Source: Flavobacteriaceae bacterium
Lineage (GTDB): Bacteria; Bacteroidota; Bacteroidia; Flavobacteriales; Flavobacteriaceae
Assembly: GCA_016780245.1 (NCBI GenBank)
Contig: JADHME010000001.1
Span: 12,597-76,596 of the forward strand
Direction: 5' to 3'
DNA: 64,000 nt
Positions 9,681 to 59,408 of the stretch are shown in pieces; the stretch's first letter is position 1; the number at the start of each line of letters is the position of its first letter. The notes under the pieces were generated by a model that searched no databases, was not told where the DNA came from, and was given only the letters and a program-made list of their open reading frames with translations. The position numbers and the translations under genes were made by a program.

Positions 9681-10375
9681 TCTTTCATTAACCTGAATCC
9701 TTCCCCATGCACATTGATAATTTTAAGTGATGAGTCTTTTTCAAGATATTTTCTAAGTTTTGCAATATATACATCCATACTTCTTGATGTGAAATAATTA
9801 GCATCTCTCCAGATTTTATTTAATGCGATATCTCTAGGCAGCAAATCATCAAAATTTAACACTAACATCTTTAATAGCTGATTTTCCTTTGGAGACAACT
9901 TAAACGAATTTCCTTCTTTATGAGTTAATATTCTAATCTTAGAGTTAAAAGAAAACTCACCAAAATCAAACTCGAAAATATCTTTTTGCTCAGTATTTAC
10001 AGTTGGTTTTCTATTAAGTATAGATTTTATTTTTGCTAGTAGTATCTCTGAATCAAAAGGTTTTGTCAAATAATCATCTGCACCTATCTTATATCCTTTT
10101 AAAACATCATCTTTTAGATTTTTTGCGGTCAGAAAAATTAGAGGAATAGCTTCATTGACTTCTCTAATTTCTTTTGCCAGAGTTAAACCATCTTTAAATG
10201 GCATCATGATGTCTAGAATACATAAATCAAATTCTGATTTATTGAACTTTTCAAAGCCCTCGATTCCATTGGCTGCAAGAGTTATGTCGTAATTATTGAT
10301 AGTTAAATAATCTTTAAGTATCCTTCCAAAATTAGGATCATCTTCTACCAATAGAATTTTTTTATCTGATTTCAT
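9677..10375 (-). CDS. OmpR/PhoB-family response regulator
   Basis: Receiver domain (LLVEDD...LDIMMP...K) followed by a winged-helix Trans_reg_C domain. Overlaps the upstream kinase gene by 14 nt. Confidence 0.9.
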   Translation of the reverse strand: MKSDKKILLVEDDPNFGRILKDYLTINNYDITLAANGIEGFEKFNKSEFDLCILDIMMPFKDGLTLAKEIREVNEAIPLIFLTAKNLKDDVLKGYKIGADDYLTKPFDSEILLAKIKSILNRKPTVNTEQKDIFEFDFGEFSFNSKIRILTHKEGNSFKLSPKENQLLKMLVLNFDDLLPRDIALNKIWRDANYFTSRSMDVYIAKLRKYLEKDSSLKIINVHGEGFRLMKD

Positions 10376-22577: not shown

Positions 22578-24005
22578 ATGAGTCAATCACCCTCATCTGT
22601 ATGGAATAACTGTCTAACTTTCATTAAGGATAATATTCAACCTCAAGCATACAAAACTTGGTTCGAGCCAATAATTCCTGTTAAACTATCTGAAGATGTT
22701 TTAAGCATTCAAGTTCCAAGTAAGTTTTTCTATGAGTGGCTTGAAGAACATTATGTAAAAATTCTTAGAATTGCTCTTACAAAAGAATTGGGATCAAAAG
22801 CGAGACTTGTTTATGTTATTAAAATGGAGAATACCTATGGCAATAAGATGCCATTCACTGAGAGTATTCCAAGTTCTTCAAGTAATGGTATAAAAGTCCA
22901 ATCAATTGAATCTCCATTTAGCACTTTTGCAAGTGAATTAAAAAATCCTTTTGTAATTCCTGGAATAAGAAACCTTCAAATAGAATCTCAATTAAACCCT
23001 AATTACTCATTTGAAAATTTCCTTGAAGGTGACTCTAATAGATTAGCAAGATCAGCTGGAATTGCTGTTTCGAACAAACCAGGTGGAACATCTTTTAATC
23101 CACTATTAATATATGGTGGTGTTGGACTTGGCAAGACTCATCTTGCTCATGCAATTGGTGTAGATGTTAAACAGAAATATCCAGACAAAACAGTTTTATA
23201 TATTTCAGCAGAGAAGTTTACACAACAATATGTTGATTCAGTCAAAAAAAACACAAGAAATGATTTTATACATTTTTATCAGTTAATTGATATTTTGATT
23301 GTTGATGATGTTCAATTTCTTTCAGGAAAATCTGGTACACAGGATGTTTTCTTCCACATATTTAATCACCTTCATCAAAATGGTAAGCAGGTAATTTTGA
23401 CTTCCGACAAGGCTCCTATTGATATGCAAGATATTGAGCAAAGACTTTTATCAAGATTTAAATGGGGCTTATCTGCAGAGCTTCAAAATCCTAACTTTGA
23501 AACTAGAGTCTCAATACTTAAGAATAAGCTATATAGAGATGGAGTTGAAATTCAGGATGAAGTAATCGAGTTTGTTGCAAAGAATATAAACTCTAATGTA
23601 AGAGAACTTGAAGGCGCTATTATTTCACTAATAGCCCAATCTTCATTTAATAAAGCAGAAATAACCGTTGATCTAGCCAAAGAGGTTATAAATAAATTTG
23701 TTAAGAATAACAGAAGAGAGGTTTCTATTGATTACATACAAAAAGTTGTCTCAGATTACTTCCAAATGGACATTCAAACTCTTCAATCAAAAACTAGAAA
23801 AAGACATATTGTGCAGGCTAGACAGATTGCAATGTATTTTGCTAAAAAGTTCACTAAAGCATCCCTTGCTAGTATAGGCTCACAAATTGGAAGAAGAGAC
23901 CATGCAACTGTCCTTCATGCATGTAAGACAGTTGATAATCTGAGCTTTACAGATAAGCAATTTAGAAAATATGTTGAAGATCTCAACCAGAAACTCTCCA
24001 ACTAG
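22578..24005 (+). CDS. dnaA: chromosomal replication initiator protein DnaA
   Basis: AAA+ Walker A GGVGLGKTHL, Walker B IVDDVQFL, C-terminal DNA-binding helix (RDHATVLHA). Confidence 0.96.
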   Translation: MSQSPSSVWNNCLTFIKDNIQPQAYKTWFEPIIPVKLSEDVLSIQVPSKFFYEWLEEHYVKILRIALTKELGSKARLVYVIKMENTYGNKMPFTESIPSSSSNGIKVQSIESPFSTFASELKNPFVIPGIRNLQIESQLNPNYSFENFLEGDSNRLARSAGIAVSNKPGGTSFNPLLIYGGVGLGKTHLAHAIGVDVKQKYPDKTVLYISAEKFTQQYVDSVKKNTRNDFIHFYQLIDILIVDDVQFLSGKSGTQDVFFHIFNHLHQNGKQVILTSDKAPIDMQDIEQRLLSRFKWGLSAELQNPNFETRVSILKNKLYRDGVEIQDEVIEFVAKNINSNVRELEGAIISLIAQSSFNKAEITVDLAKEVINKFVKNNRREVSIDYIQKVVSDYFQMDIQTLQSKTRKRHIVQARQIAMYFAKKFTKASLASIGSQIGRRDHATVLHACKTVDNLSFTDKQFRKYVEDLNQKLSN

Positions 24006-37359: not shown

Positions 37360-38757
37360 ATGGACTACAGAATAGAAAAAGATACACTTGGAGAGGTAAA
37401 AGTTCCTAAGGACAAGCTTTGGGGTGCTCAAACCGAGAGATCAAAAAAAAACTTCAAAATTGGTGACCCATCCTCAATGCCCATTGAGATAATTCACGCT
37501 TATGCTATCGTAAAAAAATCAGCTGCGTCTACTAATCATGAACTGGGAGTATTATCAAAAGAAAAATCTGAACTTATCCAAGCAGTATGTGATGAAATTA
37601 TTTCTAATAAACATAATGAACAATTTCCTTTAGTTATTTGGCAGACAGGTTCTGGAACTCAAACTAATATGAATATAAATGAAGTAATTTCAAACAGAGC
37701 TCATATAATTGAAGGGAAAAAACTTGGAGAATCAGGAAAAACTCTATCACCTAATGATGATGTTAATCTTTCACAATCGTCAAATGATAGTTTTCCTACA
37801 GCAATAAATATTGCTGCTATGAAAATAATTACAGAAAATACATTAGTTAATTTAAAATTATTAAGAGATAGTCTAAATAAAAAGTCAAAGGAGTTTAACA
37901 AAATTGTCAAAATTGGAAGAACTCACCTTATGGACGCTACTCCTATTACCTTAGGCCAAGAGTTCTCAGGTTATGTAGCTCAAATTGATAATGGAATTAA
38001 ATCTATTAAAAATGCAATGGATCATTTATCAGAGTTACCGATTGGAGGAACTGCTGTTGGGACTGAACTAAACACTCCTAAAGGTTATTCAAAAAAAGTT
38101 GTTGAAAGTATTTCAAAAAACTCAGGCCTTAAATTTAAAGAATCCCCTAATAAATTTGAAGGTATTGCATCTCATGATTGTATTGTAGAAATGCATGGTG
38201 CAATCAAGACAGCCGCTACTTCAATATATAAAATATCAAATGATATAAGGCTGATGGGGTCCGGTCCAAGATCTGGATTAGGTGAACTAATATTACCTGC
38301 TAATGAGCCGGGAAGTTCTATAATGCCAGGAAAAGTTAATCCAACACAATGTGAAGCAATCTCAATGGTTTGTGCCCAAATAATAGGTAATGACATGGCT
38401 GTAAGTTTTGCAGGGGCTAATGGTCACTTTGAGTTAAATGTTTTTAAGCCTTTATTCGCATACAATATTATAGAGTCATCAAAAATACTAGGAGATGCAT
38501 GTTTGAGTTTCTCAAAAAACTGTATTGAAGGTCTAAAACCAAATAAAAAGAAAATAGAAAGATTTTTAAACGATTCTCTAATGCTTGTAACTGCTTTAAA
38601 CTCAAAAATTGGATACTACAAAGCAGCAGAAATAGCTAATAAAGCTTATAAAGAGGATATTACGCTTAAAGAAGCATGTATTCAACTAAATTATTTATCA
38701 GAAAAAGAGTTTGATAAATATGTCAATCCTGAAAGAATGACAAACAATGAAGGTTGA
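37360..38757 (+). CDS. fumC: class II fumarate hydratase
   Basis: Fumarate lyase signature [15 protein letters not shown], 465 aa. Confidence 0.95.
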
Positions 38758-39220
38758 AATAGTATCTTACTCAGATAAATATTCTAAATACTTCTATGAT
38801 CTAAATCACGATTGGTTATGTGAATTTTTTTATGTTGAGGAATACGATGAAAAGGTACTAAAAAACTGTAAAGAAGAAATAATCGATAAGGGTGGATACA
38901 TTTTTTTTGCTCTTTATGATACTGAAGTCGTTGGTACTATGGCTCTAATTCACAGTGAAAAAAATATATATGAATTAAATAAAATGGCTGTAAAAAAAGA
39001 TTTAAGAGGAAATGGAATAGGTCATCAATTATTACAATTTATAATTGATTATTCTGTAAATAATAATTTTGAATCAGTAATACTTTACTCCAACACAGTT
39101 TTAAAAAATTCAATTCACCTTTATAATAAATTTGGATTTAAAGAAATAGATAATCCAGATGCACCCTACAAAAGGAGTGATATAAAGATGGAATTAAAAT
39201 TATCTAACCTTAGAAAATAA
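38747..39220 (+). CDS. GNAT family N-acetyltransferase
   Basis: 157 aa, motif [12 protein letters not shown]. Overlaps fumC by 11 nt. Confidence 0.75.
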
Positions 39221-40102
39221 TTTTTCTTTCCAGTTTGTCCATGAATACTTCCTTGCAAATAAAGCAAGAAGAATAGGGAAAACAATAAAAGGAGTAATCC
39301 AATCAGTAATACCAAGACTTGGCTCAGAGATATCAATTAAAATTGATTCTGTTTGAAATACAGTCCAATCTGCTGTTATAAGTAATGCGGCTATAAGATT
39401 ATTAGCAGCATGAAAACCTAAAGCAAGTTCAAGACCATCATCCATAAGTGTCATAATTCCTAAAACGAAACCAACTGTTATGTATAGAATTACAAATTCG
39501 TATCCAAGTGCTGTAATCTCAGGATTAGCTAGATGTAAAGATCCAAAAACAGTAGATGTCAAGAAAAGTGCCATAAATCTACTATTCAACCAATGACCAA
39601 AACCTTGCATTAAATAACCTCGAAAAACAATCTCCTCAACACTAGTTTGAATGGGTATAAACAAAATTGCTATTACTGCTAAGATTAAAAATTCTTTAAC
39701 TTTAAAATTGAAAACGTAGTTTTCAGGATTAAGAGAATACTCTAAAAAAACAAAGGCAGAAACAACTGTACCCCATAGCATAAAAGAATACAAAACCCTT
39801 TCTAAATCAATTTTTTTTCTACTAGATAGAATTGACATAATAGGCAAGTCATGTAGTTTTTTTACAACTAGCCATATGCCTGGTAAAACAAATGCAAAGC
39901 TTAAGAGTAGTAAAAATAGTCTAAGATTTGATGGAATTGTTTTAAAAATATCCATAAGGTCAGCATCTGGGCTAGGTAACTCTGAAGGTAAAAAAGGTAT
40001 CATAGGTAGTTGCCCTATGGTAGAGAATAGTATCAGTATAAATGATCCTAATATATAATACCAAAAATTTTTTAGTTTATATGATTTATCCCAAAGAAAC
40101 AT
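39200..40102 (-). CDS. CPBP family (CAAX prenyl protease-related) intramembrane metalloprotease
   Basis: Polytopic, with the CPBP motifs EEIVFRGY, FGSLHL and HAANN. Its start codon overlaps the stop of the upstream PAS-UbiA gene (TAATG). Confidence 0.8.
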   Translation of the reverse strand: MFLWDKSYKLKNFWYYILGSFILILFSTIGQLPMIPFLPSELPSPDADLMDIFKTIPSNLRLFLLLLSFAFVLPGIWLVVKKLHDLPIMSILSSRKKIDLERVLYSFMLWGTVVSAFVFLEYSLNPENYVFNFKVKEFLILAVIAILFIPIQTSVEEIVFRGYLMQGFGHWLNSRFMALFLTSTVFGSLHLANPEITALGYEFVILYITVGFVLGIMTLMDDGLELALGFHAANNLIAALLITADWTVFQTESILIDISEPSLGITDWITPFIVFPILLALFARKYSWTNWKEKLFSKVR

Positions 40103-41454
40103 TATTGAAAATTAGCTAAAATAATCATATAAATGAAGGAGAATAACATATAAAAATAAATAGTATGAATGTTATACTTAATCAAAGACCTACTGTTATA
40201 GTGCTTAAATAATCCAGCTATTAAGAAATATGAATATATCATTGTTACAGGGATTAACAAATACAAGAACAAAGATCCTTGAGTTTGATTAAGAATATTA
40301 TCTGCTATATAGAAAAGAGAGCCTACAACTATGGCTAAGTTAAAAGCGTAAATCCATCTTGATACTTTTTTACCCAAAAGAACAACTAAATGATTTTTAC
40401 CAACTTTTTTATCTGAAGCATAGTCAGGGTATTGGTTTATAAAAAGAATATTAGTTGTCAATAGACCAATTGGAATTCCCAGTAAAATCAAATTGTAAAA
40501 TTCATTTGAAAATAACTGAATTGTTTCATTAGAAACGGCAAATCCAGTACCTAATGTTAGTAGAGGTCCAAATGAAAGAAAAATTGAAAGTTCTCCTAAA
40601 CCATATCTAGAAGAAAGTCTTATTGGTTTAGCAGTATAAAAGTATCCAACAAGTACTCCAATTAAGGCAATTATTGCAGCATAAAATGCATTAAATGTAG
40701 ATCCAGTATTTACATAACTTGTGTATAAAATTCCAGCAGCAGTAAATAAACCTAAAATAAACATGATATTAGCAAGACTTTTGGTACCCTTCAAAGTTAT
40801 TAGACCAAGCTCTACTGCCCTACTACCTCCAGATAACTGAGCACCCTGAAGAATTGTTGAGTCCATTCCTGCATTAAAGTATTCCGTGTTAGCCTCATCT
40901 GTACCATGTGTAACATCAAAGTAATCATTATACAAGTTTGAAAATAGATGAAAGAATAAAATTCCAAATGTAGTAAGAGTAAGAGATATTGGGCTAAATA
41001 GATTATCTCCAATTCCTGCATAATAACATCCAATGGCAAAAACTGGGAATAAAGATGCAGAAGCAAAACCAACTCTAGTTATTGCTACACCTTTTATGAT
41101 TTTTGTAACAAAACTGATAGGTATATTAACTTCTTCATCAATTACTTCAGTGATTCCACAATATCCTGTTTGTGGATTATTTTTTCCATTACCAAAATTT
41201 GGGGTTATTTTAATTTTTGCAGCAAATTTTGAGCCATCTTTTCTTATAAAATTGGTTTTGGTAATATGTTCACCAGTTTGATTTGCATCCTTTAACCAAC
41301 CTAAAACATTTTGAAGAACTATTTCTCCAGGTGAAAAAATTGAAACTCTTTTAATACCTACTAATTCGTCAGATGGGTAGCCAAACATTTTGACAGCTCT
41401 ATCATTAATGTTTGTAATTAAACCTTCCATATCGCAAATAATAACACTTTTCAT
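40102..41454 (-). CDS. PAS domain fused to a MenA-like UbiA-family prenyltransferase
   Basis: Residues ~1-105 are PAS-like (CDMEGLITNINDRAVKMFGYPSDELVG...FIRKDGSKFAAKIKITP). About 8-9 TM spans follow, with UbiA Asp-rich motifs NLYNDYFDVTHGTD and NQYPDYASDKKVGKNH and a MenA-like YTAKPIRLSSRYGLGE. Confidence 0.8.
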   Translation of the reverse strand: MKSVIICDMEGLITNINDRAVKMFGYPSDELVGIKRVSIFSPGEIVLQNVLGWLKDANQTGEHITKTNFIRKDGSKFAAKIKITPNFGNGKNNPQTGYCGITEVIDEEVNIPISFVTKIIKGVAITRVGFASASLFPVFAIGCYYAGIGDNLFSPISLTLTTFGILFFHLFSNLYNDYFDVTHGTDEANTEYFNAGMDSTILQGAQLSGGSRAVELGLITLKGTKSLANIMFILGLFTAAGILYTSYVNTGSTFNAFYAAIIALIGVLVGYFYTAKPIRLSSRYGLGELSIFLSFGPLLTLGTGFAVSNETIQLFSNEFYNLILLGIPIGLLTTNILFINQYPDYASDKKVGKNHLVVLLGKKVSRWIYAFNLAIVVGSLFYIADNILNQTQGSLFLYLLIPVTMIYSYFLIAGLFKHYNSRSLIKYNIHTIYFYMLFSFIYMIILANFQ

Positions 41455-41473
41455 ATAAATATTTTTAAAGTGC

Positions 41474-41481
41474 CAAATTTA
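41474..41481 (-). promoter_or_regulatory. -7 box TAAATTTG upstream of the PAS-UbiA gene
   Basis: Plus-strand CAAATTTA, 19 nt upstream of ATG 41454, in the 65-nt spacer after the thioesterase gene. Suggests the PAS-UbiA/CPBP pair can be transcribed on its own. Confidence 0.35.
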
Positions 41482-41519
41482 CATTTTGACTAATTAATAT
41501 AAAAGTTTTTTCTTAAGTT

Positions 41520-41945
41520 TTACTTATTAATTGTTAACGTAGTGAGTTTTGCGAACGAAATATCTTTTCCTTCTTTGTTTTTAATTGATATTTTCCAAAG
41601 CTGCATTATCCTTCCCATATGAACTGGTTCAGCTTTGGCAACAACTGTTCCTTCACTTATACCCCTAACATGATTAATTGACAATTCAACGCCTCTTAAC
41701 ATCTGGTTCTCTTTTTTCGAAAAAATTGCAGCAGCTGAACTTCCAACTGTTTCTGCTAGTGCAGCAGTAGCTCCACCATGAAGGACACCAGCAGGTTGAT
41801 GTAGCTTTGGGGTAACTTGCATTTCAGCAACTAAGAAGGTTTCCCCAACATCTGTAAAATTTATATCTAAAGTAGAAACAAGAGTACCCTTACACCTTTC
41901 ATTAGCTTCTTTAAGAATAAACTTTTTTAATTTATTATCAATCAA
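41520..41945 (-). CDS. PaaI/YdiI-type hotdog thioesterase (candidate 1,4-dihydroxy-2-naphthoyl-CoA hydrolase)
   Basis: 141 aa. QPAGVLHGGATAALAETVGS and INHVR...G.V.A.A.P.H.GR..Q.W.I motifs closely follow the YdiI/YbdB pattern as I recall it. Starts 3 nt after the dnaK stop. Confidence 0.72.
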   Translation of the reverse strand: MIDNKLKKFILKEANERCKGTLVSTLDINFTDVGETFLVAEMQVTPKLHQPAGVLHGGATAALAETVGSSAAAIFSKKENQMLRGVELSINHVRGISEGTVVAKAEPVHMGRIMQLWKISIKNKEGKDISFAKLTTLTINK

Positions 41946-41948
41946 AAT

Positions 41949-43868
41949 CTATTCTTCTTTTACTTCTTCAAAATCAACATCCTGTACATCATTACCTTTG
42001 GAATCAGTATTTGTGTTTTGACTATTTGAAGCAGGTCCATCTCCAGTTTGACCAGCGCCACTTTCCGCTTGAGCTTTATACATCTCCTCTGATGCATTTT
42101 TCCAAGCTTCGTTTATCGCATTCAATGTCTCATCAATTTTTTCTAAATCTTTTGACTCATATGCTTTTTTCAAATCCTCTAGAGCAGACTCAATTGGCTT
42201 CTTTTTATCATCAGATAATTTATCACCAAAGTCTTTAAGCTGTTTTTCAGTCTGGAATATCATTTGATCAGCACTGTTAAGTTTATCAACTTCCTCTTTG
42301 GTCTTTGAATCAGCTTCAGCATTAGCTTCAGCATCTTTTTTCATTTTTTCAATCTCCTCTTCTGTTAAACCAGAGGAAGCCTCAATTCTAATATCCTGAG
42401 ATTTATTAGTAGCTTTATCCAGTGCGCTTACATTAATTATTCCATTAGCATCGATATCAAATGTAACCTCTATTTGAGGAACACCTCTTGGTGCAGGTGG
42501 AATTCCATCAAGATGGAATCTTCCAATAGTTTTATTGTCTTTAGCCATAGGTCGCTCACCCTGAAGAACATGAATCTCTACAGATGGCTGATTATCAGCA
42601 GCGGTAGAGAAAACTTGTGATTTTTTTGTTGGAATCGTTGTATTTGACTCAATAAGCTTGGTCATTACATTACCCATTGTTTCTATTCCAAGTGATAGAG
42701 GAGTAACATCTAATAATAATACATCTTCAACATCACCAGAGAGAACACCACCTTGAATTGCAGCTCCTACTGCAACAACTTCATCTGGATTAACTCCTTT
42801 TGAAGGTTTTTTACCAAATAATGACTCAACCTCCTTTTGAATAATTGGAATTCTTGTTGAACCTCCAACTAATATCACTTCATCAATATCTTTTTTAGTT
42901 AGATTAGCATCTTTTAATGCTTTTTTAACTGGTTCCATAGATCTTTTCACTAATTCATCACATAATTGCTCAAACTTAGCTCTTGTTAGTGTAGTTACTA
43001 GATGCTTTGGGCCAGATGAAGTAGCTGTTACATATGGTAAGTTAATTTCTGTTTGTGTGGATGAAGAAAGCTCTATTTTAGCTTTTTCTGCAGCTTCTTT
43101 TAGCCTTTGAAGGGCCATAGAATCATCCCTCAAGTCAATCTGCTCGTTTTTCTTAAATTCTTCAGCAAGAAAGTCTATAATAACTTGATCAAAATCGTCT
43201 CCTCCAAGATGAGTATCTCCATTAGTAGAAAGCACTTCAAATACTCCGTCACCAAGCTCTAATATTGAAATATCAAATGTTCCTCCTCCTAAATCATAAA
43301 CTGCAATTTTTTTGTCCTTACCTCCTTTATCCATTCCATAAGCTAGAGCAGCAGCAGTTGGTTCGTTTATAATTCTTTGAACTTTAAGACCTGCAATCTC
43401 ACCTGCTTCTTTTGTTGCTTGTCTTTGTGAATCATTAAAATATGCAGGTACAGTTACTACAGCTTCTGTAACACTTGATCCTAAATAATCTTCAGCAGTC
43501 TTCTTCATTTTCTGAAGAACCATAGCAGACAATTCTTGTGGTGTATACAACCTACCGTCAATATCAACTCTAGGAGTATCGTTATCCCCCTTAACTACTT
43601 TATATGCAACAGTTTTAACATCATTAGATGATTCACTGAATTTATTACCCATGAACCTCTTAACTGAAGCAATTGTTTTTTCAGGATTAGTCACTGCTTG
43701 TCTTTTTGCAGGATCTCCTACTTTGATTTCACCATCCTCAACGAACGCAATTACAGATGGTGTTGTTCTTTTTCCTTCAGCATTAGGTATAACAACCGGT
43801 TCACTTCCTTCCATAACAGAAACACACGAGTTTGTGGTTCCTAAATCTATTCCAATAATTTTACTCAT
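41949..43868 (-). CDS. dnaK: molecular chaperone DnaK (Hsp70)
   Basis: [18 protein letters not shown] and [11 protein letters not shown] motifs with an acidic C-terminus. The track start at 43925 adds 19 non-homologous residues, so ATG 43868 ([10 protein letters not shown]) is preferred. Confidence 0.97.
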
Positions 43869-43914
43869 AATCTTTAATTTAACTAACTGATGACAACCAT
43901 TATGCCAATTCAAA

Positions 43915-43937
43915 TAATATGACATTATGTCATATTA
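43915..43937. promoter_or_regulatory. perfect 23-bp palindrome (operator candidate) in the dnaK/panB divergent spacer
   Basis: TAATATGACAT-T-ATGTCATATTA (11-1-11, no mismatch), roughly centred in the 110-bp spacer. It lies 47 nt from the dnaK ATG and 42 nt from the panB ATG. Confidence 0.45.
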
Positions 43938-47141: not shown

Positions 47142-48302
47142 ATGAAAAATCAGGTTCAAATTTTTGATACAACTTTAAGAGATGGAGAACAGGTTCCGGG
47201 TTGTAAACTTGATACCAAAAGTAAATTAATTTTAGCAGAGAAAATTGATCATCTTGGGGTTGATATAATTGAAGCAGGCTTTCCAATTTCAAGTCCTGGA
47301 GACTTTAAATCAGTTGTTGAAATCTCCAAGATTATAAAAAACGCATCAGTATGTGCTTTAAGTAGAGCTAACGAAAAAGATATTGATGTTGCAGCTGAGT
47401 CATTAAAAAATGCAAAAAAACCAAGAATTCATACCGGTATAGGTACATCTGAAGTTCATATTAAATATAAATTCAACTCAAATAAAGACTCAATAATTGA
47501 AATAGCAAAAAAATCAGTTGCTCATGCAAGAAAGTATGTGGACGATGTTGAATTTTATGCCGAAGATGCTGGTAGAACAGATAACGAATTTCTTGCAAAA
47601 GTATGTGAAGAAGTTATTAAGTCTGGAGCTACTGTTTTAAACATACCAGATACAACTGGCTATTGCTTACCTATTGAATATGGAGATAAAATTAAGTTTT
47701 TAATGAATAATGTTAAAGGTATTGAAAATGTTACAGTTTCATGTCACTGTCACAACGACCTTGGGCTAGCAACCGCTAACTCTATATATGGAGTTATTAA
47801 TGGTGCAAGACAAATTGAGTGTACAGTTAATGGTATTGGAGAGAGAGCAGGAAACACATCTTTGGAAGAAGTTGTTATGATTTTAAGACAGCATACTGAT
47901 TTAAACCTAGATACTAATATTAATTCTAAACTTCTTAATGAAACTAGCCAAAAAGTATCTGAACTTATGGGAATGCCTGTTCAACCAAATAAGGCTATAG
48001 TTGGATCCAATGCATTTGCTCATAGCTCTGGTATTCATCAAGATGGTGTTATTAAGAAAAGAGAAACTTATGAAATTATTGATCCACTTGATGTTGGTGT
48101 TGATAAATCATCAATTGTACTGACGGCTAGGAGCGGTAGAGCTGCACTGGCATTTAGAATGAAGCAATATGGAGTTAATCTTACAAAAAAAGAACTTGAT
48201 GATGTTTATAATGAGTTCTTAATAGTAGCTGACAGAAAGAAAGAAGTAACAGACATAGATTTTCCTGAAATTCTTCAGAATAAAAATATTAGTTATGGCT
48301 AA
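47142..48302 (+). CDS. leuA: 2-isopropylmalate synthase, short form lacking the C-terminal regulatory domain
   Basis: DRE-TIM motifs [10 protein letters not shown] and HCHNDLGLA. 386 aa, ending after the post-barrel subdomains. First gene of the leu operon. Confidence 0.82.
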
Positions 48303-49683
48303 AACACTATTTGACAAAGTTTGGGATTCGCATGTAATTGAAAAAATAAAAGATGGCCCAGATGTTCTTTTTATTGATAGACACTTCATTCATGAAGTTA
48401 CAAGTCCAGTAGCATTTGTTGGGCTTAATAACAGGGGTCTTAAAGTAATGTTTCCTGATAAAACTTTTGCCACTGCTGACCATAATACACCAACTATAAA
48501 TCAACATCTACCAATTAAGGATAAACTATCAGCAATACAGGTGAAAACCCTAGAAAAAAACTGTATTGAGCATGGTATTGATTTTTGGGGACTTGGTCAT
48601 AATAAGAATGGTATTGTTCATGTTATTGGTCCAGAAAATGGTATCACTCAGCCAGGACTTACAATTGTATGTGGAGATTCTCATACATCTACTCATGGTG
48701 CATTCGGAGCTATTGCATTTGGTATAGGAACATCTGAAGTAGAAATGGTTCTTGCATGTCAGTCTATAATGCAACAAAAGCCTCTAAAGATGAGGATAAA
48801 CATTGATGGATCTCTTAATTCTCATGTTACACCAAAGGATGTTGCTATATATATTATCTCAAGACTTTCTTCCTCTGGCGCAACTGGATATTTTGTCGAA
48901 TATTCAGGAGAAGTTTTTAAGAATATGAGTATGGAAGGTAGAATGACTGTCTGTAATCTTAGTATTGAAATGGGTGCAAGAGGTGGAATGATTGCCCCAG
49001 ATGAGATAACATTTGAATACATAAAAGGTAGAGAATATGCCCCTAAAGGAGAAGTATGGGAGAATGCTCTATCCTATTGGAAATCACTAAAGACTGATAA
49101 TGATGCAATTTTTGATAAAGAATTTAACTTTAATGCAAGTGATATTGAACCTATGATTACTTATGGCACTAACCCAGGTATGGCTATTCCCATTTCCAAA
49201 TCAATTCCAGGTTCCGGTTCAGACTCGGAATCATCATATCAAAAGGCACTCGACTATATGGAGTTTAAGGAAGGTGAAATGATGATTGGAAAAAAAATTG
49301 ACTATGTCTTCCTTGGAAGCTGCACAAATGGGAGAATTGAAGACTTTAGAACATTTGCTAGCTTAATAAAAGGCAGGAGAAAATCTGATGATGTTGATGC
49401 TTGGCTTGTACCTGGATCACATAAAGTATTAAAAAGTATAAAAGATGAAGGAATACTAGATATCCTAACAGATTCTGGTTTTAAATTGAGAGAACCTGGT
49501 TGCTCTGCATGTCTGGCAATGAATGATGACAAAATACCCAAAGGAAAATATGCAGTAAGTACCACAAATAGAAATTTTGAAGGAAGACAAGGACCTGGTG
49601 CTAGAACTTTACTTGCAAGTCCTTTGGTCGCTGCTGCTACTGCTATTACTGGAAAGATAACTGATCCAAGAGAAATTATTTAA
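48295..49683 (+). CDS. leuC: 3-isopropylmalate dehydratase large subunit
   Basis: Aconitase family. [18 protein letters not shown] and CSACLAMN Fe-S ligand contexts. Confidence 0.95.
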
Positions 49684-49684
49684 A

Positions 49685-50281
49685 ATGGCTTACGATAAAT
49701 TTAACATTCTAAACAGCTCAGCTGTTCCACTTAATATTGATAATGTAGATACAGATCAAATTATCCCAGCAAGATTTTTGAAAGCAACTGAAAGAAAAGG
49801 ATTTGGTGAGAATCTTTTTAAAGATTGGAGATATAACTCAGATGGCACTGCTATTGATTCATTTCCTTTAAACAATAAAATCTACAATGGAAAGATACTT
49901 GTTGCTGGTAAAAATTTTGGATGCGGATCTTCAAGAGAGCATGCTGTTTGGGCAATATATGATTACGGCTTCAGAGCTGTTGTATCAAGTTTTTTTGCTG
50001 ATATATTTAAAAATAACTGTTTAAATATTGGTGTTCTACCTATTCAAGTTTCTGAGGAATTTTTAATAGATATTTTTTCTCAAGTTAATACAAATCCAAA
50101 AAGTAATTTTGAGGTAAACCTAGAAATTCAAGAATTTAAGATTATTGAAACTGGAAAGTCTGAAAAATTTAATATTAGCTCTTACAAAAAAAGTAACATG
50201 TCAAATGGTTTTGATGATATAGATTACCTTATAAATAAAAAGCAAGAAATATCTAAATTTGCCAATAATTCTCCATACTAA
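49685..50281 (+). CDS. leuD: 3-isopropylmalate dehydratase small subunit
   Basis: GKNFGCGSSREHA motif, 198 aa. Confidence 0.93.
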   Translation: MAYDKFNILNSSAVPLNIDNVDTDQIIPARFLKATERKGFGENLFKDWRYNSDGTAIDSFPLNNKIYNGKILVAGKNFGCGSSREHAVWAIYDYGFRAVVSSFFADIFKNNCLNIGVLPIQVSEEFLIDIFSQVNTNPKSNFEVNLEIQEFKIIETGKSEKFNISSYKKSNMSNGFDDIDYLINKKQEISKFANNSPY

Positions 50282-51795
50282 TGTCCAAACATATTGAAAT
50301 AATGGATACTACTCTGAGGGATGGAGAACAGACCTCAGGAGTATCATATTCACCTAAAGAAAAACTTACAATAGCTAAGCTTTTGTTGGATGATCTTAAA
50401 ATAGATCGAATAGAAGTCGCCTCTGCAAGGGTATCTGAGGGAGAACTTAATTCAGTTAAGGAAATATCTAGCTGGGCAGAAAAAAATAGCAGAATAGATA
50501 GTATTGAAGTTTTAACATTTATAGATGAAGGAAAATCTATACAATGGCTATTAGACTCAGGATGTAAAGTTCAAAATCTTTTAACTAAAGGTTCCTTAAA
50601 TCATTTAAAGCACCAATTAAAGAAAACCCCTGATCAACATTTTAATGACATATCAAAAACTATTGATATTGCGGAAAAAAATTCAATAACCACTAACATT
50701 TATCTTGAAGATTGGAGTAATGGAATGAAAAATAGTAAAGATTATGTTATAGATTATTTTAATTTTTTAAAAACAAAAAACATCAAAAGAGTCTTACTTC
50801 CTGATACCCTAGGAATTTTAACTCATTTTGAAACTTATGAATTCATAAATGAAGTAAGAAATAAATATCCAAATTTTCATATAGACTTTCATGGACATAA
50901 TGACTATGATTTAAGTGTTGGAAACTCATTAGAAGCTATTAGAGCTGGTTGCGATGGTCTTCACCTTACAATAAATGGAATGGGAGAAAGGGCTGGTAAT
51001 ACTCCCCTGTCAAGCGCTGTTGCAGCAATTAGAGACTTCTTACCAGAATACAAAATAAATGTTGAAGAAAAGAATCTGTTTAAAGCAAGCAAATTAATTT
51101 CAACATTTTCTGGACAAAGTGTATCATCTAATAAACCAATAGTTGGTGAAAATGTATTTACGCAAACAGCTGGTGTTCACGCAGATGGTGATAATAAAAA
51201 AGATTTATACTTCAACAACTTGAATCCAAGTAGATTTGGCAGGAAAAGAAAATATGCTCTTGGAAAGACTTCTGGAAAAGCTAATATTAAAAAGAACCTA
51301 GATGAATTAGGAATTAATCTAAATGATGATGAGCTTAGCGTTGTAACATCTAAAGTGATTGAATTAGGAGATAAAAAAGAGAAGGTTACAATTGAAGATC
51401 TTCCTTATATTATTAGTGATGTTCTTGAATATCCAACAAAAAAGAAAGACATAATAATTGAATCTTATGTTTTAACTCATGCAAAGACTCTTAGACCATC
51501 TGCTTCTCTTTCATTAATTATTAATGATGAACTTTATCAAGAAAACTGTACAGGTGATGGCCAATTTGATGCATTTATGAATGCATTAAAAAAAATATAC
51601 TCTAAAAGGAAAAAGATACTTCCAAAATTAATTGATTATGCTGTTCGTATCCCCCCAGGTAGTGATTCAGATGCATTTTGTGAAACCACTATTACTTGGG
51701 ATACTGGATCAAAAAAATTTAAAACAAGAGGACTTGATACAGATCAAACAGTGTCTGCCATCAAAGCAACAGAGAAAATGTTAAATACTGAATAA
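50281..51795 (+). CDS. citramalate synthase / 2-isopropylmalate synthase family protein with C-terminal LeuA_dimer-type regulatory domain
   Basis: [10 protein letters not shown] and HGHNDYDL DRE-TIM motifs plus a ~120-aa C-terminal regulatory-type domain. Inserted between leuD and leuB. Confidence 0.75.
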   Translation: MSKHIEIMDTTLRDGEQTSGVSYSPKEKLTIAKLLLDDLKIDRIEVASARVSEGELNSVKEISSWAEKNSRIDSIEVLTFIDEGKSIQWLLDSGCKVQNLLTKGSLNHLKHQLKKTPDQHFNDISKTIDIAEKNSITTNIYLEDWSNGMKNSKDYVIDYFNFLKTKNIKRVLLPDTLGILTHFETYEFINEVRNKYPNFHIDFHGHNDYDLSVGNSLEAIRAGCDGLHLTINGMGERAGNTPLSSAVAAIRDFLPEYKINVEEKNLFKASKLISTFSGQSVSSNKPIVGENVFTQTAGVHADGDNKKDLYFNNLNPSRFGRKRKYALGKTSGKANIKKNLDELGINLNDDELSVVTSKVIELGDKKEKVTIEDLPYIISDVLEYPTKKKDIIIESYVLTHAKTLRPSASLSLIINDELYQENCTGDGQFDAFMNALKKIYSKRKKILPKLIDYAVRIPPGSDSDAFCETTITWDTGSKKFKTRGLDTDQTVSAIKATEKMLNTE

Positions 51796-51797
51796 TT

Positions 51798-52865
51798 ATG
51801 ATTTTAAAAATAGCTGTATTATCTGGAGATGGAATTGGACCTGAAGTTACTGAACAATCTATTAAAGTACTTAAATCTTTAGGTAAAAAATTTAATCATA
51901 AAATTGAATTAGAAAGTGGATTAGTTGGAGCAGTTGCAATTGATAAATACAATGATCCCTATCCAGATGAAACTCATCAAGTATGTCTAAATTCAGATGC
52001 AATTCTTTTTGGTGCGATTGGGGATCCTAAATATGATAATAATCCAAAAGCTAAGGTAAGACCTGAACAAGGTTTACTCAAAATGAGAAAGAAACTAGGA
52101 CTATATGCAAACCTCCGCCCTACGAAGGTCTTTGAATCCTTATTAGAGATGTCACCAATTAAAGAAGAAAGAATATCTGGAACTGATATCCTTTTTGTAA
52201 GAGAATTAACCGGAGGTATTTACTTTGGAGAAAGAGGTAGAAGGGATAATGATAATTTTGCATTTGACACATGTGAATATAATAGAGATGAAATTATTAG
52301 AATTGCAAAAATAGGATTTGAGTATGCACAGAGAAGATCAAGTAAGTTATGTTGTGTTGATAAAGCAAATGTTCTTGAAACATCAAGACTATGGAGAGAA
52401 ACAGTTCAAAGTATGGAAAAAAACTATCCAAATATAGAGGTCTCATATGAATTTGTAGATGCTGTTGCTATGAGATTAGTTCAATGGCCAAATTCGTATG
52501 ATGTATTGATTACTTCAAATCTTTTTGGTGATATTTTAACAGATGAAGCTTCAGTCATTTCTGGTTCAATGGGGCTTATGCCATCTGCCTCAGTTGGTTC
52601 TGAAAACGCTCTATATGAGCCAATTCATGGCTCTTACCCAGAAGCAGCAGGAAAAAATATTGCTAATCCTATCGCTTCAATTTTATCTCTTTCAATGATG
52701 CTAGATCATTCATTTAATTTGAAAAAAGAATCAGAAATAATCAATAATGCAGTTGAAGAATCTCTTAAAAATAAATATGTAACTCCTGACCTGAGCTCAG
52801 ATGAAAAAACATTCTCAACAGATCAAGTTGGTGACTATATAGTAAATTTTATTGAAAAAAATTAG
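51798..52865 (+). CDS. leuB: 3-isopropylmalate dehydrogenase
   Basis: [13 protein letters not shown] start and [12 protein letters not shown] signature. Confidence 0.95.
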
Positions 52866-54439
52866 AGTATATAGTCTGTAGAAATAAAATTAGAGTCATT
52901 GGAGTCTAAAAGTTTTTTTAGTATCCTGTTATTATGAATATTATCCTTTGAAGCTACAAAAGTTCTTATAGAGAATGCTCTTAATGCATCATGAACACTT
53001 AAAGTACTTACAGCAGAATTTTTTCTACCTGTAAAAGGATAGATATCTGGACCTCTTTGACATGAGCTATTAAGATTAACCCTACACACAAGGTTTGCAA
53101 GAGTATCAATAAGTGGCCCTAGTTGTTTTGTATCACTTCCAAAAAGACTTACTTGTTGACCGTATTCTGAATTTGCCATATCATCAAGAGGTTCATCTAT
53201 ATCCTTAAATGAAATTACAGGAATTACAGGTCCAAACTGTTCTTCTTCATATACTCTCATATTTTGGTTTACAGGATATAATATTGCGGGAAAACAATAG
53301 TTTTCAGTGACTTGTCCTCCTTTTTTATTAACTATTGATGCGCCTTTAGAGACAGCGTCATCAATTAAATCTCTTATATATTTTGGTTTGGATGGTTCAG
53401 GCAAGGGTGTTAAAAAAGAATCCTCTTCCCATGGCATTCCAAATTTTAAACTGTCAACCGCTTGTGCGAACTTCTTATTAAATTCATGTACTATTGATTC
53501 ATGAACATATAAAACTTTAAGTGCAGTACATCTTTGACCATTATATGACAGACAACCTGAAATACATTCTTGAATAGTTAAGTCAAGGTCAGCGTCAGGC
53601 AGTATAATCCCCGGATTTTTTGCTTCTAGTCCTAAAACGAGTCTAAGCCTATTTTTATTAGGATGCTGATCTTGAAGTGCAACTGCAGATGAACTATGTC
53701 CAATTAGTGCAAGAACATCAACATAACCTGTTTGCATTATAGGAGGACATATTTTTCTTCCTCTTCCAAAGAGAATATTAACAACCCCAGGAGGAAAACA
53801 TTCCTTAAAGGCATTTAATAAAGGAGCGATTAAAAGCACTCCATGCTTTGCAGGTTTAAAAATAGTTGTATTACCCATTAAAATAGCTGGTATTAGCAAA
53901 CAAAAAGTTTCGTTCAATGGATAATTATATGGACCTAAGCATAAAACAACACCTAAAGGACCCCTTCTAATATGTGCGTGAATACCTGAATCTTTCTCAA
54001 ATCTTGCAGAAGATCTATCAATCTTTTTGTATTCATTAATTGTATCGTAAATATAGTCTACTGTTCTATCAAACTCTTTTTCAGAGTCTTTTTTGTTTTT
54101 TCCTATCTCCCACATTAAGAGGTTAACTACAACATCTCTATGTTCCTGAATCTTATCAGCAAACCTTTTCATACATTTAAGTCTATCTCTAACCTTCATA
54201 GTAGGCCATTTACCTTGACCTCTATCAAATGCTTTTTTGGCTGATTCTAGGGCTTCTAATGCTGACTTTGAGTCCATATCTGGTATTGAACCTAGAAGCG
54301 TTTGAGAATAAGGTTTGTTAGGGTCAGAGCTTATTGTTGAATAAACTTCTGAAGTATCTCCATCCCATTTTATTAATTTTCCGCCCACAAGATATTCCCT
54401 GCAGTTTAATTGATCTACTTTAATAGTTTTTGTTGACAT
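52862..54439 (-). CDS. aldehyde dehydrogenase family protein, GapN-like (non-phosphorylating GAPDH type)
   Basis: 525 aa. [18 protein letters not shown], catalytic-Cys context [12 protein letters not shown] and C-terminal [15 protein letters not shown] resemble GapN. The usual ELGGK motif reads GLEAK here. Starts 5 nt after the ilvA stop. Confidence 0.72.
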
Positions 54440-54444
54440 ATATT

Positions 54445-55692
54445 TTAAATTAAAAAACGAAGAGTTTCTGGTTTCTCGTTTAAATACTCTCCAAAGAAAC
54501 CATTTTCTTTCATCTTTTTTACTAAATCATTTAAATCTTTAGAAAATTTTAACTCAATACCTACGATTGCTGTTCCATTTTCTCTGTTATTTTTTTTGAC
54601 ATATTCAAAGAAGGTAATATCATCATTTTTACCGAGTACATTGTTTACAAATTCTTTAAGTGCACCTGCTCTTTGAGGAAACTTAACAATGAAATAATGT
54701 TTAAGGTTTGAATAAAATAATGCCCTCTCTCTTATCTCTGCCATCCTTGTAAAATCATTATTTCCACCACAAATTAATACACCAACATTTTTATCCTTAA
54801 ACATTTTATTATTTAACTCAAGTGCTGATATTCCTATAGCACCTGCAGGCTCAACCACTATTCCATCTTTGTCATAAAGATCTAGTATAGTTTGACATAT
54901 TTTACCTTCAGGAACTAATAAAATTTCATCTAAATATTTTTTACAAATATCAAAAGGAATTTTACCAATTTTTTTTATTGAAACCCCATCAACAAAGTTA
55001 TCAATAGAGTCTAGTTTAATAATTTTTCCATCTTTTAAAGACTTACTCATTGCAGGAGCTCCTTTTGCCTCAACACCAATAATCTTTGTTTTGGGAGACA
55101 ATTCTTTAAAGACAGTAATTATTCCAGAAATTAAACCTCCTCCTCCTACTGGAACAATCAAATAATCAAAATGCTTATCAACTTGATCTAGAATTTCTAA
55201 TCCTATAGTTCCTTGACCTTCAATAACATTAACATCATCAAATGCATGAACAAATAAATCTTTATCAGTATTTTGCTTTTGAGCTTCATATTGGGCATCG
55301 TCAAAATTGTCTCCGATTAATATAATTTCAACATATTCACCTCCAAAAATTTTAACCCTTTCAATTTTTTGTTTTGGAGTTGTAACAGGCATATAAATTT
55401 TTCCATAAATTTTTAGCTTATTGCAAGAATATGCAAAACCCTGAGCATGATTACCAGCACTTGCACAAACTAGTGTTTTATTCTTTAGATAGTCTGAGTC
55501 AATAGATCTAATTTTATTAAAAGCACCACGAATTTTAAAAGATCTAACTTGCTGAAGATCTTCACGTTTTAAGTAAATTTTACAATTTAGATCATTTGAA
55601 AGTCTCTCATTTATAACTAAGGGAGTTAAAACTGAGACACCTTGAAGATTTTCAGAAGCAATCCTAACTCCTTTTAAATCAGGAAGTTGCAT
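54445..55692 (-). CDS. ilvA: threonine ammonia-lyase (biosynthetic, single regulatory domain)
   Basis: PLP-lysine context [16 protein letters not shown] loop, one C-terminal ACT-like domain. 415 aa. Confidence 0.9.
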
Positions 55693-55695
55693 TTC

Positions 55696-57168
55696 TTAAA
55701 CAGATTTCATTGAAGTCATGTACTGCCTAAGTTCATCACCAATTATTTCAATTGAGTGGTATCTAATTGTTTCGTTAATCTCAATTAATTTTTTATTATC
55801 AACAGAGCTAGAACTCTTACTTATTGAGTCTGAACCAATTATGTCAGTTTCTACTTTATCAAAGAATTTAGAGAGAAGTGGAATTGCATCATTATTAAAA
55901 AGATAGCATCCATATTCTGCAGTATCAGAAATAATATTATTCATTTCGTATAATTTTTTTCTGGAAACTAGATTAGCTATAAGCGGAAGTTCATGAAGAG
56001 ATTCATAGTATGCAGACTCTTCTTTTATACCTGCTTCAACCATTGTTTCAAAGGCTAACTCAACACCAGCCTTAACAAGTGCTATCATTAAAATTCCATT
56101 ATCAAAATATTCTTGCTCAGAAATTTCATCTGATGTAGGATCTGTCTTCTCAAAATCAGTCTTACTTGTTTCTTCTCTCCAACTTAAAAGTTCTTGATCA
56201 TCATTCTCCCAATCCTTCATCATAGTCTCGGAGAATTTACCTGATAAGACATTATCCATATGCTTAATAAATAATGGAGATAATATTTCTTTAAGTTCCT
56301 CAGATAATTCAAATGCTTTAACTTTTGCAGGGTTTGATAATCTGTCCATCATATTTGTTATACCTCCATGCTTTAAAGCTTCTGTAACAGTCTCCCATCC
56401 ATATTGAATAAGTTTTGCAGAGTAGCTAGGTTCAATTCCAAGTTCTTTCATTTTATTAAAGCACAGAATTGATCCTGTTTGGAGCATTCCACATAATATT
56501 GTCTGCTCACCCATTAAATCAGATTTAACTTCAGCAACAAAAGATGATTCTAAAACTCCTGCTTTATCAGATCCGAGAGATACCGCATATGCTTTAGCTG
56601 CATCAAAACCAATTCCATTAATATTATTTTCAGGATGAACAGCAATAAGTGTAGGAACTCCAAAACCTCTTAAGTACTCTTCTCTTACCTCAGATCCTGG
56701 AGATTTTGGTGCGACCATAATAACGGTAATATCTTCTCTAACTTTAATACCCTCTTCTACTATGTTAAATCCATGAGAATAAGAAAGAATAGAGTCTTTT
56801 TTCATTAATGGCATAAGTTGTTCAACAACTGGAGTATGGTTTTTATCTGGAGTCAAATTTATTACCAGGTCAGAATTTGGTATTATTTCTTCGAAATTAC
56901 CAACATTAAACTTATTTGTACTTGCATTAACGAACGATTGTCTTATAGAATCAATAGATGACTGCCTGAGAGCATATGAAATATCAAGACCAGAGTCTCT
57001 CATATTAAGGCCTTGATGTAAACCTTGGGCTCCACAACCAACAATAGCTATTTTTTTATTCTTGAGAAATTCCACCCCATCACTAAATTCAGATGAGCTC
57101 ATAAATCTACATTTTCCTAATTGCATTAGTTTCTCTCTAAATGATAGAGTGTTAAAGTAATTTTTCAT
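55696..57168 (-). CDS. ilvC: ketol-acid reductoisomerase, long (class II) form
   Basis: 490 aa. NADPH motif GCGAQG and a duplicated knotted C-terminal domain length. Confidence 0.93.
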
Positions 57169-57173
57169 TGTTT

Positions 57174-57707
57174 TTATTTTTGGTTTTTAAAAGTATTTAA
57201 AATTTCCGAGATTCCCATCTTTTCTTTACTCACAGCTATTCTTCCAGATCTAGTAAATTGAAGAAGGCCAAAAGGCGCAAGATCTTTATAAAGTTTTTCA
57301 GTATCTTCTCTAAATCCAGTTTTTTCAATCACAAAAAACTCTGTATTTACTGTAACAATTCTTGCATTAGAATCTTTAATTATATTTTGTATGTGTCTCT
57401 CCTCAAATAATGAAGATGACTTCATTTTATATAATGCAGATTCTTGAAATATCGTTTCATCATCTCTGTGGTAAAAAGCTTTTATTACTTCGACCTGTTT
57501 CTCAATTTGCTTAATCACCCTTTCTACGCCAGATTTTGTCATTTTAACAACAATAATAAATCTATATACATTCTTTATTTCAGATTCTGATGTTGTAAAA
57601 CTCTCAATATTTATGTGTCTTTTTAGAAAAATTGCTGAAATTCTATGAAGAAGACCAACGTTATTTTCAGTGTAAACAGATACGGTGTAATTTTTTCTTT
57701 TTTCCAT
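57174..57707 (-). CDS. ilvN: acetolactate synthase small (regulatory) subunit
   Basis: N-terminal ACT domain ([26 protein letters not shown]) plus ALS_ss_C-like C-terminus. Confidence 0.88.
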
Positions 57708-57708
57708 T

Positions 57709-59403: not shown

Positions 59404-59408
59404 ATTAA

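Follow-up and report, generated by a model that had tools for sequence, protein, structure and literature searches.

A PAS domain fused to a MenA-like UbiA prenyltransferase in marine NS5 Flavobacteriaceae

The DNA analyzed here is a stretch of 64,000 nucleotides (nt) from a Flavobacteriaceae bacterium (assembly GCA_016780245.1, contig JADHME010000001.1, positions 12,597 to 76,596), referred to as the window, and all coordinates are positions within it unless a locus is named. On the minus strand, at 40102..41454, lies a 450-amino-acid (aa) open reading frame (ORF) in which Pfam profiles identified a PAS domain (PAS_9) followed by a UbiA-family membrane prenyltransferase. We interpret the product as an active enzyme of the MenA type whose catalysis is modulated, from the active-site face, by its own cytoplasmic PAS domain, a reading to which we assign a probability of roughly 55%. 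Domain identities, fold, motif integrity, distribution, synteny and sequence constraint are results of the analysis, and the substrate, PAS-dependent regulation, the kind of signal and single-copy status are inferred.

The PAS domain occupies residues 1-105 (41140..41454, minus strand) and was recognized by profile, by predicted fold and by structural search. PAS_9 (PF13426) matched residues 3-92 with 33.5 bits against a gathering score of 27, and TIGR00229 gave 34.0 bits against 22.9. An AlphaFold2 model, built from an alignment of 23 diverse fusions, had a mean predicted local distance difference test score (pLDDT) of 85.8 and a predicted TM-score (pTM) of 0.82, and placed a PAS fold ahead of a nine-helix UbiA fold. 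The PAS strands in this model fall at residues 3-8, 12-16, 63-70, 76-87 and 95-104, together with the usual helices. When the N-terminal part was compared with the PDB using Foldseek, 3LYX was matched with a target TM-score of 0.80-0.82 and a root-mean-square deviation (rmsd) of 1.6-1.8 A, and the other PAS matches included NifL, EcDOS, FixL, Aer and LOV proteins. Judged by profile and predicted fold, the N-terminal segment is a true PAS domain. This bears out the PAS fold proposed in an earlier model-generated annotation made from the letters and ORF translations (the sequence-only reading). Residues 106-126 (41077..41139, minus strand) form a linker and a pre-membrane helix (residues 115-126), with a pLDDT of 85-91 across the linker.

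The rest of the protein, residues 127-450 (40105..41076, minus strand), is a MenA-like UbiA domain with nine predicted membrane helices, which span residues 128-447 in the AlphaFold2 model. PF01040 matched residues 137-409 with 73.2 bits (gathering score 34.2). Foldseek matched the membrane part to AfUbiA (4TQ3/4, E about 1e-7) and to human UBIAD1 (8DJK_B), which gave the highest target TM-score for the membrane domain (0.78) and was also the closest solved structure by sequence. The first Asp-rich motif, N173-LY-N176-D177-YF-D180-VTHG-T-D186 (40897..40938, minus strand), has N173 and D177 invariant and N176, D180, G184 and D186 conserved in at least 90% of sequences; the second, N340-QYP-D344-YAS-D348-KKVG-K353 (40396..40437, minus strand), has N340 and P343 invariant and D344, D348 and K353 conserved in at least 90%. 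The peptides NLYNDYFDVTHGTD, NQYPDYASDKKVGKNH and YTAKPIRLSSRYGLGE were all found in the locus translations, as were EEIVFRGY, FGSLHL and HAANN of the neighboring protease, and the in-frame fusion to a MenA-like enzyme with Asp-rich motifs stands as originally described.

All significant NCBIfam matches of the membrane half were to MenA models (TIGR02235, NF004751, TIGR00751 and others), and the MenA-type motifs NDYFDxxxGxD, SGGSR, YTAxPxRL..GLGEL and Nx(F/Y)PDxxxDxxxGKxxLVV were intact. These motifs are common to PAS-less relatives of ~300 aa at 33-44% identity, which score 90-175 bits on MenA models; two of them pass the TIGR00751 cut-off. The fusion was filed as a MenA-like, MenA-clade quinone prenyltransferase and not as a curated MenA equivalog. 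UbiA enzymes have an N-in topology and bind Mg2+/diphosphate through two Asp-rich motifs on cytoplasmic loop ends. This topology and the order of helices in the model predict that the cytoplasmic face bears both Asp-rich motifs, at helix ends, as well as the YTAxPxRL loop, R422 and the PAS domain. With MenA (EC 2.5.1.74) and its human orthologue UBIAD1 the protein shares the nine-helix UbiA fold and the motifs NDYxDxxxGxD, NxxxDxxxDxxxGKxxL and YTxxP..GLG(D/E)L, and its gene neighbors are suggestive of the quinone pathway; unlike them it has a 105-aa N-terminal PAS domain, seen in no characterized MenA, and a cap-loop insertion typical of the NS5 group, and it scores below the equivalog cut-offs. 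The insertion, at residues 192-206 (40837..40881, minus strand), is NS5-specific, predicted to be disordered (pLDDT <50) and absent from the non-NS5 fusions in the alignment. Within it, the 11-aa segment NAGMDSTILQG lies between the first Asp-rich motif and SGGSR, in a loop that is expected to cap the active site.

The fusion is widespread in marine data. When 5.8 billion proteins were searched, over 2000 homologues were recovered; all 120 of those listed carry PF13426 together with PF01040, have lengths of 436-458 aa and derive from independent assemblies of marine origin (Tara, JGI, ENA, NCBI). In a genome scan that took one genome per species, 76 loci were examined and 74 contained a full-length fusion; the genomes are single-amplified genomes (SAGs) and metagenome-assembled genomes (MAGs) of uncultured Flavobacteriaceae, including Candidatus Marisimplicoccus (NS5_A marine group). 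The ORF was uninterrupted, at 445-456 aa, in essentially all loci, the exceptions being L029, which is truncated, and L058, which has an N-run. The fusion is thus a real gene, maintained by purifying selection. Thousands of database entries carry it under the labels "DHNA octaprenyltransferase" or "UbiA family prenyltransferase", with the sensor half unmentioned. In L029 (6001-6453, a MED-G11 MAG) the ORF ends after 150 aa and similarity continues downstream, as in a frameshifted pseudogene or an assembly error.

The sequences of neighboring genes in independent lineages point to quinone synthesis. In NS5 genomes a YdiI/EntH/MenI-like thioesterase gene lies just upstream of the fusion; in Marinimicrobia aroC-aroK-aroB-aroQ are immediately upstream; in L083 a polyprenyl-diphosphate synthase gene ends 35 nt before the fusion; and the closest PAS-less relative (P0174) is part of a UbiE/MenG-methyltransferase / polyprenyl-synthase / UbiA operon. 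Most likely, the 450-aa protein prenylates 1,4-dihydroxy-2-naphthoate (DHNA) to give demethylmenaquinone for the respiratory chain of this NS5-group marine flavobacterium, and the fusion is probably the working MenA of the organism. It is also likely to be the sole housekeeping MenA of the genome, an outcome that the sequence-only reading listed as counting against its idea: NS5_A genomes are only ~1.17 Mb in size, with roughly 30% GC (PMC9122927), and a redundant second MenA is for that reason unlikely. The window, at 30.5% GC and ~95% coding, is in line with the NS5_A genomes of that study. Neither menA, K02548 nor menaquinone is mentioned in that paper or its supplements.

The PAS half is under stronger constraint than the enzyme to which it is attached. 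Within NS5, sequence pairs were on average 75% identical in the PAS domain, 68% in the linker and 60% in the UbiA domain, which speaks against the PAS domain being a remnant in decay. Its signature comprises C7-D8-x-E10-G11, KRVSxFSPGE (with R36), W53-L54 and GYCG (with C99), and the generic PAS residues D8, G11, I13 and G25-Y26 are present. The signature is conserved across phyla: among 89 fusions, C7 was found in 86, R36 in 84, W53-L54 in 83 and G97-Y-C99-G with C99 in 77, and Cys7 and Cys99 occurred together in 76. C7 belongs to strand A-beta and C99 to strand I-beta, which are neighboring strands of the PAS sheet, so that a redox-sensitive Cys7/Cys99 pair is conceivable.

Beyond the flavobacteria, 1.84 billion cluster representatives were searched exhaustively with HMMER, and ~25 of them proved to be full-length PAS+UbiA proteins, with 30-65% identity. 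Candidatus Marinimicrobia/Neomarinimicrobiota is the source of cluster P0130 (445 aa), and marine Euryarchaeota MAGs are that of P0126/P0280 (541-551 aa). The archaeal proteins add an N-terminal EF-hand pair ahead of the PAS domain (EF-hand_7 41.1 bits, PAS_9 38.6, UbiA 89.9); their genes lie at 1990-3645 in L078 and 10001-11626 in L090 (P0126 and P0280), and the contig also carries a thermosome gene, which argues that the genome with the EF-hand form is archaeal. The EF-hand pair raises the possibility of a Ca2+ input to an enzyme of quinone synthesis. Other MenA-like proteins have a PNPOx-type (FMN-binding split-barrel) domain at the position of the PAS domain (P0220, P0245 and P0253; L089 is the locus of P0245), and still others have an unassigned domain of ~150 aa at the same N-terminal position. 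At the sequence level the MenA-like core looks like a base on which cytoplasmic input modules can be exchanged. A convergent CREG/PNPOx/DUF2470 gene was always next to the archaeal fusion (L078-L080; 11631-12488 in L090/L091), with a flavodoxin and a small methyltransferase gene nearby, a recurrent link between flavin- or heme-type barrels and the MenA-like clade. A rough neighbor-joining (NJ) tree built from UbiA domains placed the archaeal proteins as sisters to those of Marinimicrobia. The deeper branches of this tree are not resolved, and a single origin thus rests on the common PAS signature. The fusion probably arose once and then spread horizontally in surface-ocean plankton (NS5 Flavobacteriaceae, Marinimicrobia and marine Euryarchaeota), and some lineages would have stacked a further input, the EF-hand pair, onto it.

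One homologue deserves separate mention. P0157 (L081 and L082, 7001-8266) is encoded in a genome of Bacteroidota that also has genes for type IX secretion; both of its Asp-rich motifs are degenerate (NVISDYFLEKDGAVD and INQFPIADGKYRPALD), and SGGSR has been lost. P0157 may therefore be a pseudo-enzyme, catalytically dead but still of PAS-UbiA architecture.

In the proposed mechanism, the short ordered linker and helix would hold the PAS domain at the membrane face that bears the Asp-rich motifs and the cap loops. A cytoplasmic cue would change the conformation or oligomeric state of the PAS domain, and this in turn would affect how accessible the catalytic cap is or how it closes. Redox state, of thiols or of the quinone pool, is the leading candidate for the cue, acting through Cys7/Cys99 by analogy with ArcB, and some small ligand is an alternative. 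In ArcB, quinones oxidize two PAS cysteines and so switch output (PMC11620690). ArcB resembles the fusion in having a cytoplasmic PAS domain with two conserved cysteines on a membrane protein; it differs in that its output is a histidine kinase rather than a biosynthetic enzyme and in the positions of the cysteines, so that the likeness is a functional analogy and not a family assignment. A second parallel is the eag domain of hERG/EAG, an N-terminal PAS domain on a polytopic membrane protein that was matched both by Foldseek and by the PAS profile (5VA1, 1BYW). The hERG/EAG PAS domain acts by docking onto the cytoplasmic face, not via a kinase or cyclase. These proteins are eukaryotic ion channels and not enzymes, and they have no sequence relationship to the fusion past the PAS fold. 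Signal gating of quinone synthesis, as suggested in the sequence-only reading, is plausible, given the tighter constraint on the PAS domain than on the catalytic domain and the recurrence of N-terminal add-ons.

A broader version of this proposal is held only tentatively. It states that the PAS domain truly senses oxygen, a light-linked metabolite or the redox state of thiols or the quinone pool, and thereby gates menaquinone synthesis at the enzyme itself; that the module has been exchanged ready-made between Bacteria and Archaea and was extended in the archaeal lineage by the Ca2+-binding EF-hand pair; and that it belongs to a wider, unrecognized class of MenA enzymes with interchangeable input domains (PAS, EF-hand plus PAS, and PNPOx-like).

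Several results weigh against a PAS-modulated MenA. On the enzyme side, the MenA equivalog scores were far below their cut-offs (52.8 against 102.15 for TIGR00751, 63.5 against 264 for NF004751 and 65.2 against 225 for TIGR02235), and the name given to the protein by PGAP is 'UbiA family prenyltransferase' only. No menB/C/D/E/F or mqn gene was present in any locus compared or in the 64-kb window, and NCBIfam and Pfam annotation of the window revealed no canonical menA. In the NJ tree the fusions do not come out as a single clean clade. On the sensor side, C99 is absent from the 12 most divergent of the 89 fusions, and both the contact between the PAS domain and the cap and the proximity of Cys7 to Cys99 are conceivable arrangements derived from PAS strand order in the model. 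Single-sequence and profile searches of PDB sequences detected generic PAS similarity only, with no PAS cofactor signature, including that for flavin. PAS domains can be purely structural.

The known cofactor-dependent sensors were considered individually. The domain is like the cofactor-binding PAS sensors (LOV with FMN, NifL and Aer with FAD, FixL and EcDOS with heme) in fold (target TM-score 0.7-0.8, rmsd 2-3 A), in D8 and G11 and in the GY at 25-26. A LOV photoreceptor was ruled out, as the segment aligned with NCRFLQ reads KRVSIFSPGE, in which KRVSIF stands for NCRFLQ and Val replaces the adduct Cys. A heme-PAS of the FixL/EcDOS kind was rejected as well: the helix at residues 43-60 is without His in NS5, and the region of the FixL proximal His, which lies on the F-alpha helix, has Asn. 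Position 49, which is one residue off register from the FixL His, is Asn in 72/89 fusions and His in 6/89, the latter in some other lineages. These outcomes too count against a sensing role of the familiar kinds. The top single-sequence PDB match, the designed repeat protein 7RDR, was dropped as a low-complexity helical artefact.

The strongest competing explanation is that the protein is a housekeeping MenA with constitutive activity and a PAS domain that does not sense, which instead dimerizes the enzyme or docks a partner (the thioesterase, a polyprenyl-diphosphate synthase or MenG) for channeling. It is supported by the nearest solved PAS domains by profile, 3LYX and the CTR1-like 5IU1, which are cofactor-free or dimerizing, by the lack of a cofactor-binding signature in the searches described above, and by the adjacency of pathway partners to the gene in several lineages. 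The high conservation of the PAS domain and the rigid linker fit a fixed protein-protein interface equally well. The PAS signature nevertheless stays constant while the partners vary between lineages, a simple scaffold needs no conserved pair of cysteines, and the EF-hand stacking in archaea and the PNPOx-type domains at the same position resemble interchangeable input modules. On balance, a purely structural PAS domain is considered unlikely, while remaining a serious competitor.

More doubtful is a role as a MenA paralogue that acts on another aromatic acceptor, for a non-menaquinone prenylquinone, a pigment or a signaling lipid, with menaquinone made by a separate canonical MenA. The scores well under all MenA equivalog cut-offs would fit such a paralogue, as would the identity of only 33-44% to the nearest PAS-less relatives, the apparent horizontal movement between phyla and domains, which is more typical of accessory functions, and the NS5-specific cap-loop insertion. 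Against it stand the fully conserved MenA-type motifs and gene neighborhoods that, in four independent lineages, point to core quinone synthesis (aro genes, polyprenyl synthase, UbiE/MenG and MenI-like thioesterase). Moreover, the gene is kept in every sampled species of a lineage with genomes of about 1.2 Mb, and in NS5 it is located among the housekeeping genes dnaK, fumC and panB. We consider the paralogue improbable.

Immediately downstream of the fusion, at 39200..40102 (minus strand), is a gene for a 300-aa CPBP intramembrane protease (PF02517; Rce1-like, glutamic-type), which scored 56.6 bits against a gathering score of 22.4. The two genes meet in the sequence TAATG (40100-40104), where the stop codon TAA of the fusion (40104..40102) and the ATG of the CPBP gene (40102..40100) have one base in common; this overlap, and the motifs EEIVFRGY, FGSLHL and HAANN, were present as the sequence-only reading had reported. 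The EExxxR, FxxxH and HxxxN motifs are those of CPBP/Rce1-like type II CAAX prenyl endopeptidases, and their residues E156, E157, R161, H190, H231 and N235 were invariant in 59 orthologues, which have a mean identity of 53% and a minimum of 35%. The protein scored far below the cut-offs of the myxosortase/Mrt models and of the ABC-permease CPBP model, and no match was obtained when it was compared with solved structures. CPBP was the next gene in every NS5 locus, with a gap of -1 to +77 nt once three loci with an automatic start call inside the gene were left out, and this adjacency was kept where the flanks are rearranged (L012, L017 and L037-42). Extra DNA lies between the thioesterase and the fusion in two of these loci (~3.4 kb in L012, 2531-6001, and ~1.3 kb in L017, 4670-6001), with CPBP still immediately downstream. 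A CPBP neighbor was absent in all seven non-NS5 fusion contexts, namely Marinimicrobia, archaea, L069, L081, L083, L084 and L085. The proposed adjacency of PAS-UbiA and CPBP genes was therefore found to be universal within NS5 and did not extend beyond it.

The same data bear on the suggestion that the fusion and the protease act as a CAAX-like pair, in which prenylation is followed by proteolysis of a membrane or protein substrate, or that the protease processes or regulates the fusion itself. The constancy of the CPBP neighbor in NS5 even with changed flanking synteny, the invariant catalytic residues, the common promoter and the frequent overlap of both genes are in keeping with such a pair. 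UbiA-family enzymes, however, prenylate small aromatic or lipid acceptors and not proteins. The CPBP protein diverges faster than the fusion, and nothing indicates a prenylated protein substrate. Overlaps and gaps of <=5 nt are normal between unrelated genes here: 25 of the 38 same-strand neighbor pairs in the window are spaced by <=5 nt, and five share an identical 1-nt overlap, including the unrelated coaE/fabI. The 1-nt overlap of the fusion and CPBP genes is thus not distinctive, overlaps being the rule in this compact genome. The two genes form a stable NS5-specific operon. Because non-NS5 contexts are without CPBP, short gaps are common and UbiA enzymes are not protein prenyltransferases, a mechanistic link of the protease to prenyl transfer is not supported, and we regard the pair put forward in the sequence-only reading as very improbable. 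Least credible of all, to the point of being negligible, is an assembly, frameshift or gene-calling artefact joining two genes, for which nothing speaks, the truncated ORF of L029 and some fragmentary database entries aside, and against which stand the conserved and confidently modeled linker and the same intact 445-456-aa ORF in about 70 independent SAGs/MAGs and hundreds of metagenome assemblies, so that the artefact once named as a way for the fusion to fail is removed.

The fusion would be transcribed from its own promoter together with the CPBP gene, the product of which has intact catalytic residues. A Bacteroidota-type -7 promoter box, TAAATTTG (41474..41481, minus strand), is present 19 nt 5' of the ATG of the fusion, as originally noted. 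The pattern TAnnTTTG had 102 matches in the window against 102.9 expected, that is, no enrichment, and the TAAATTTG box is meaningful only because its position is conserved: a TAnnTTTG box lies 16-23 nt 5' of the start codon in 51 of the 74 orthologous loci. This positional conservation argues for a separate promoter of the fusion-CPBP unit. No -33 TTTG element was found in the 40 nt upstream of the -7 box. The thioesterase gene is probably carried on the dnaK transcript.

The thioesterase gene (41520..41945, minus strand) encodes a hotdog-fold protein of 141 aa, YdiI/EntH/MenI-like, and has a TTG start 3 nt past the dnaK stop; the spacer between it and the fusion is 65 nt (41455..41519). Both distances agree with the sequence-only reading, as does the class of the enzyme. 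The protein scored 59.2 bits with 4HBT (gathering score 20.6) and passed TIGR00369 with 112.5 bits (cut-off 36.6); against equivalog models it scored 87.8-89.5 for MenI (cut-offs 185-226) and 105 for EntH (cut-off 237), all below the cut-offs. Profiles for PAS, UbiA, CPBP and 4HBT all scored above their Pfam gathering scores. In most NS5 loci the thioesterase gene adjoins the fusion, but 11 loci lack it in the block (L043-47, 49, 50, 53, 59, 64 and 71).

Full-text literature searches, which covered the MGII/Poseidoniales quinone literature, gave no description of a PAS-UbiA or PAS-MenA fusion, in agreement with the sequence-only reading, which knew of no characterized example of this architecture, and none appears in a systematic survey of fusion proteins in archaea. 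As far as the searchable literature shows, we know of no MenA or UbiA-family enzyme that is controlled by a fused sensor domain. Menaquinone synthesis is known to be controlled upstream, for example by feedback of DHNA on MenD, or transcriptionally. What is new here is the PAS input on a MenA core; MenA, PAS domains and the database copies under generic names were already known. The fusion stands out for its ecological reach, its spread across domains and the strong constraint on its sensor half.

If the PAS domain does gate prenyl transfer, it would provide a new and very direct way of matching respiratory quinone content to redox or energy state. Such gating would operate in dominant surface-ocean heterotrophs (NS5 Flavobacteriaceae, Marinimicrobia and marine Euryarchaeota) with reduced genomes and scarce classical regulators, and would amount to post-translational feedback on the capacity of the respiratory chain in very abundant rhodopsin-bearing photoheterotrophs. 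The cross-domain distribution would offer a clear example of a regulated membrane enzyme that has been passed on horizontally.

The fusion, CPBP and thioesterase genes form, with dnaK, a block of four co-oriented minus-strand genes (39200-43925), a strand assignment that the sequence-only reading had not given. The dnaK gene (41949..43925, minus strand; HSP70 PF00012, 891 bits) is the upstream gene of this conserved block and is syntenic in nearly all NS5 loci, and dnaK, fumC and panB are the housekeeping neighbors of the fusion in NS5. A GNAT acetyltransferase gene (38747..39220, plus strand) is convergent with the CPBP gene. The two overlap by 21 nt at their 3' ends (39200-39220), and the GNAT gene also overlaps fumC by 11 nt; these overlaps indicate tight packing of the genome.

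Approximately 50 ORFs of the window were annotated with NCBIfam and Pfam, and all were housekeeping genes (rpsA, lon, dnaA, leu, ilv and others). The presence of dnaA (22578-24005) places the locus close to the presumed replication origin. A complete leu operon (47142-52865, plus strand) and an ilv operon (52862-61082, minus strand) are located downstream, and Rfam and tRNA scans of the whole 64 kb detected no RNA family and no tRNA. Two genes downstream of a PAS-UbiA gene, in L085 (6783-8729) and L086 (7186-9132), is a gene for a 648-aa protein with a Rieske [2Fe-2S] domain and TPP_enzyme N, M and C domains, an unusual architecture. The sole classical two-component pair seen in the 64-kb window is an RprY-like response regulator with a histidine kinase (9677-11954, minus strand), and a single pair is consistent with a streamlined genome poor in regulators, where enzyme-level control could matter.

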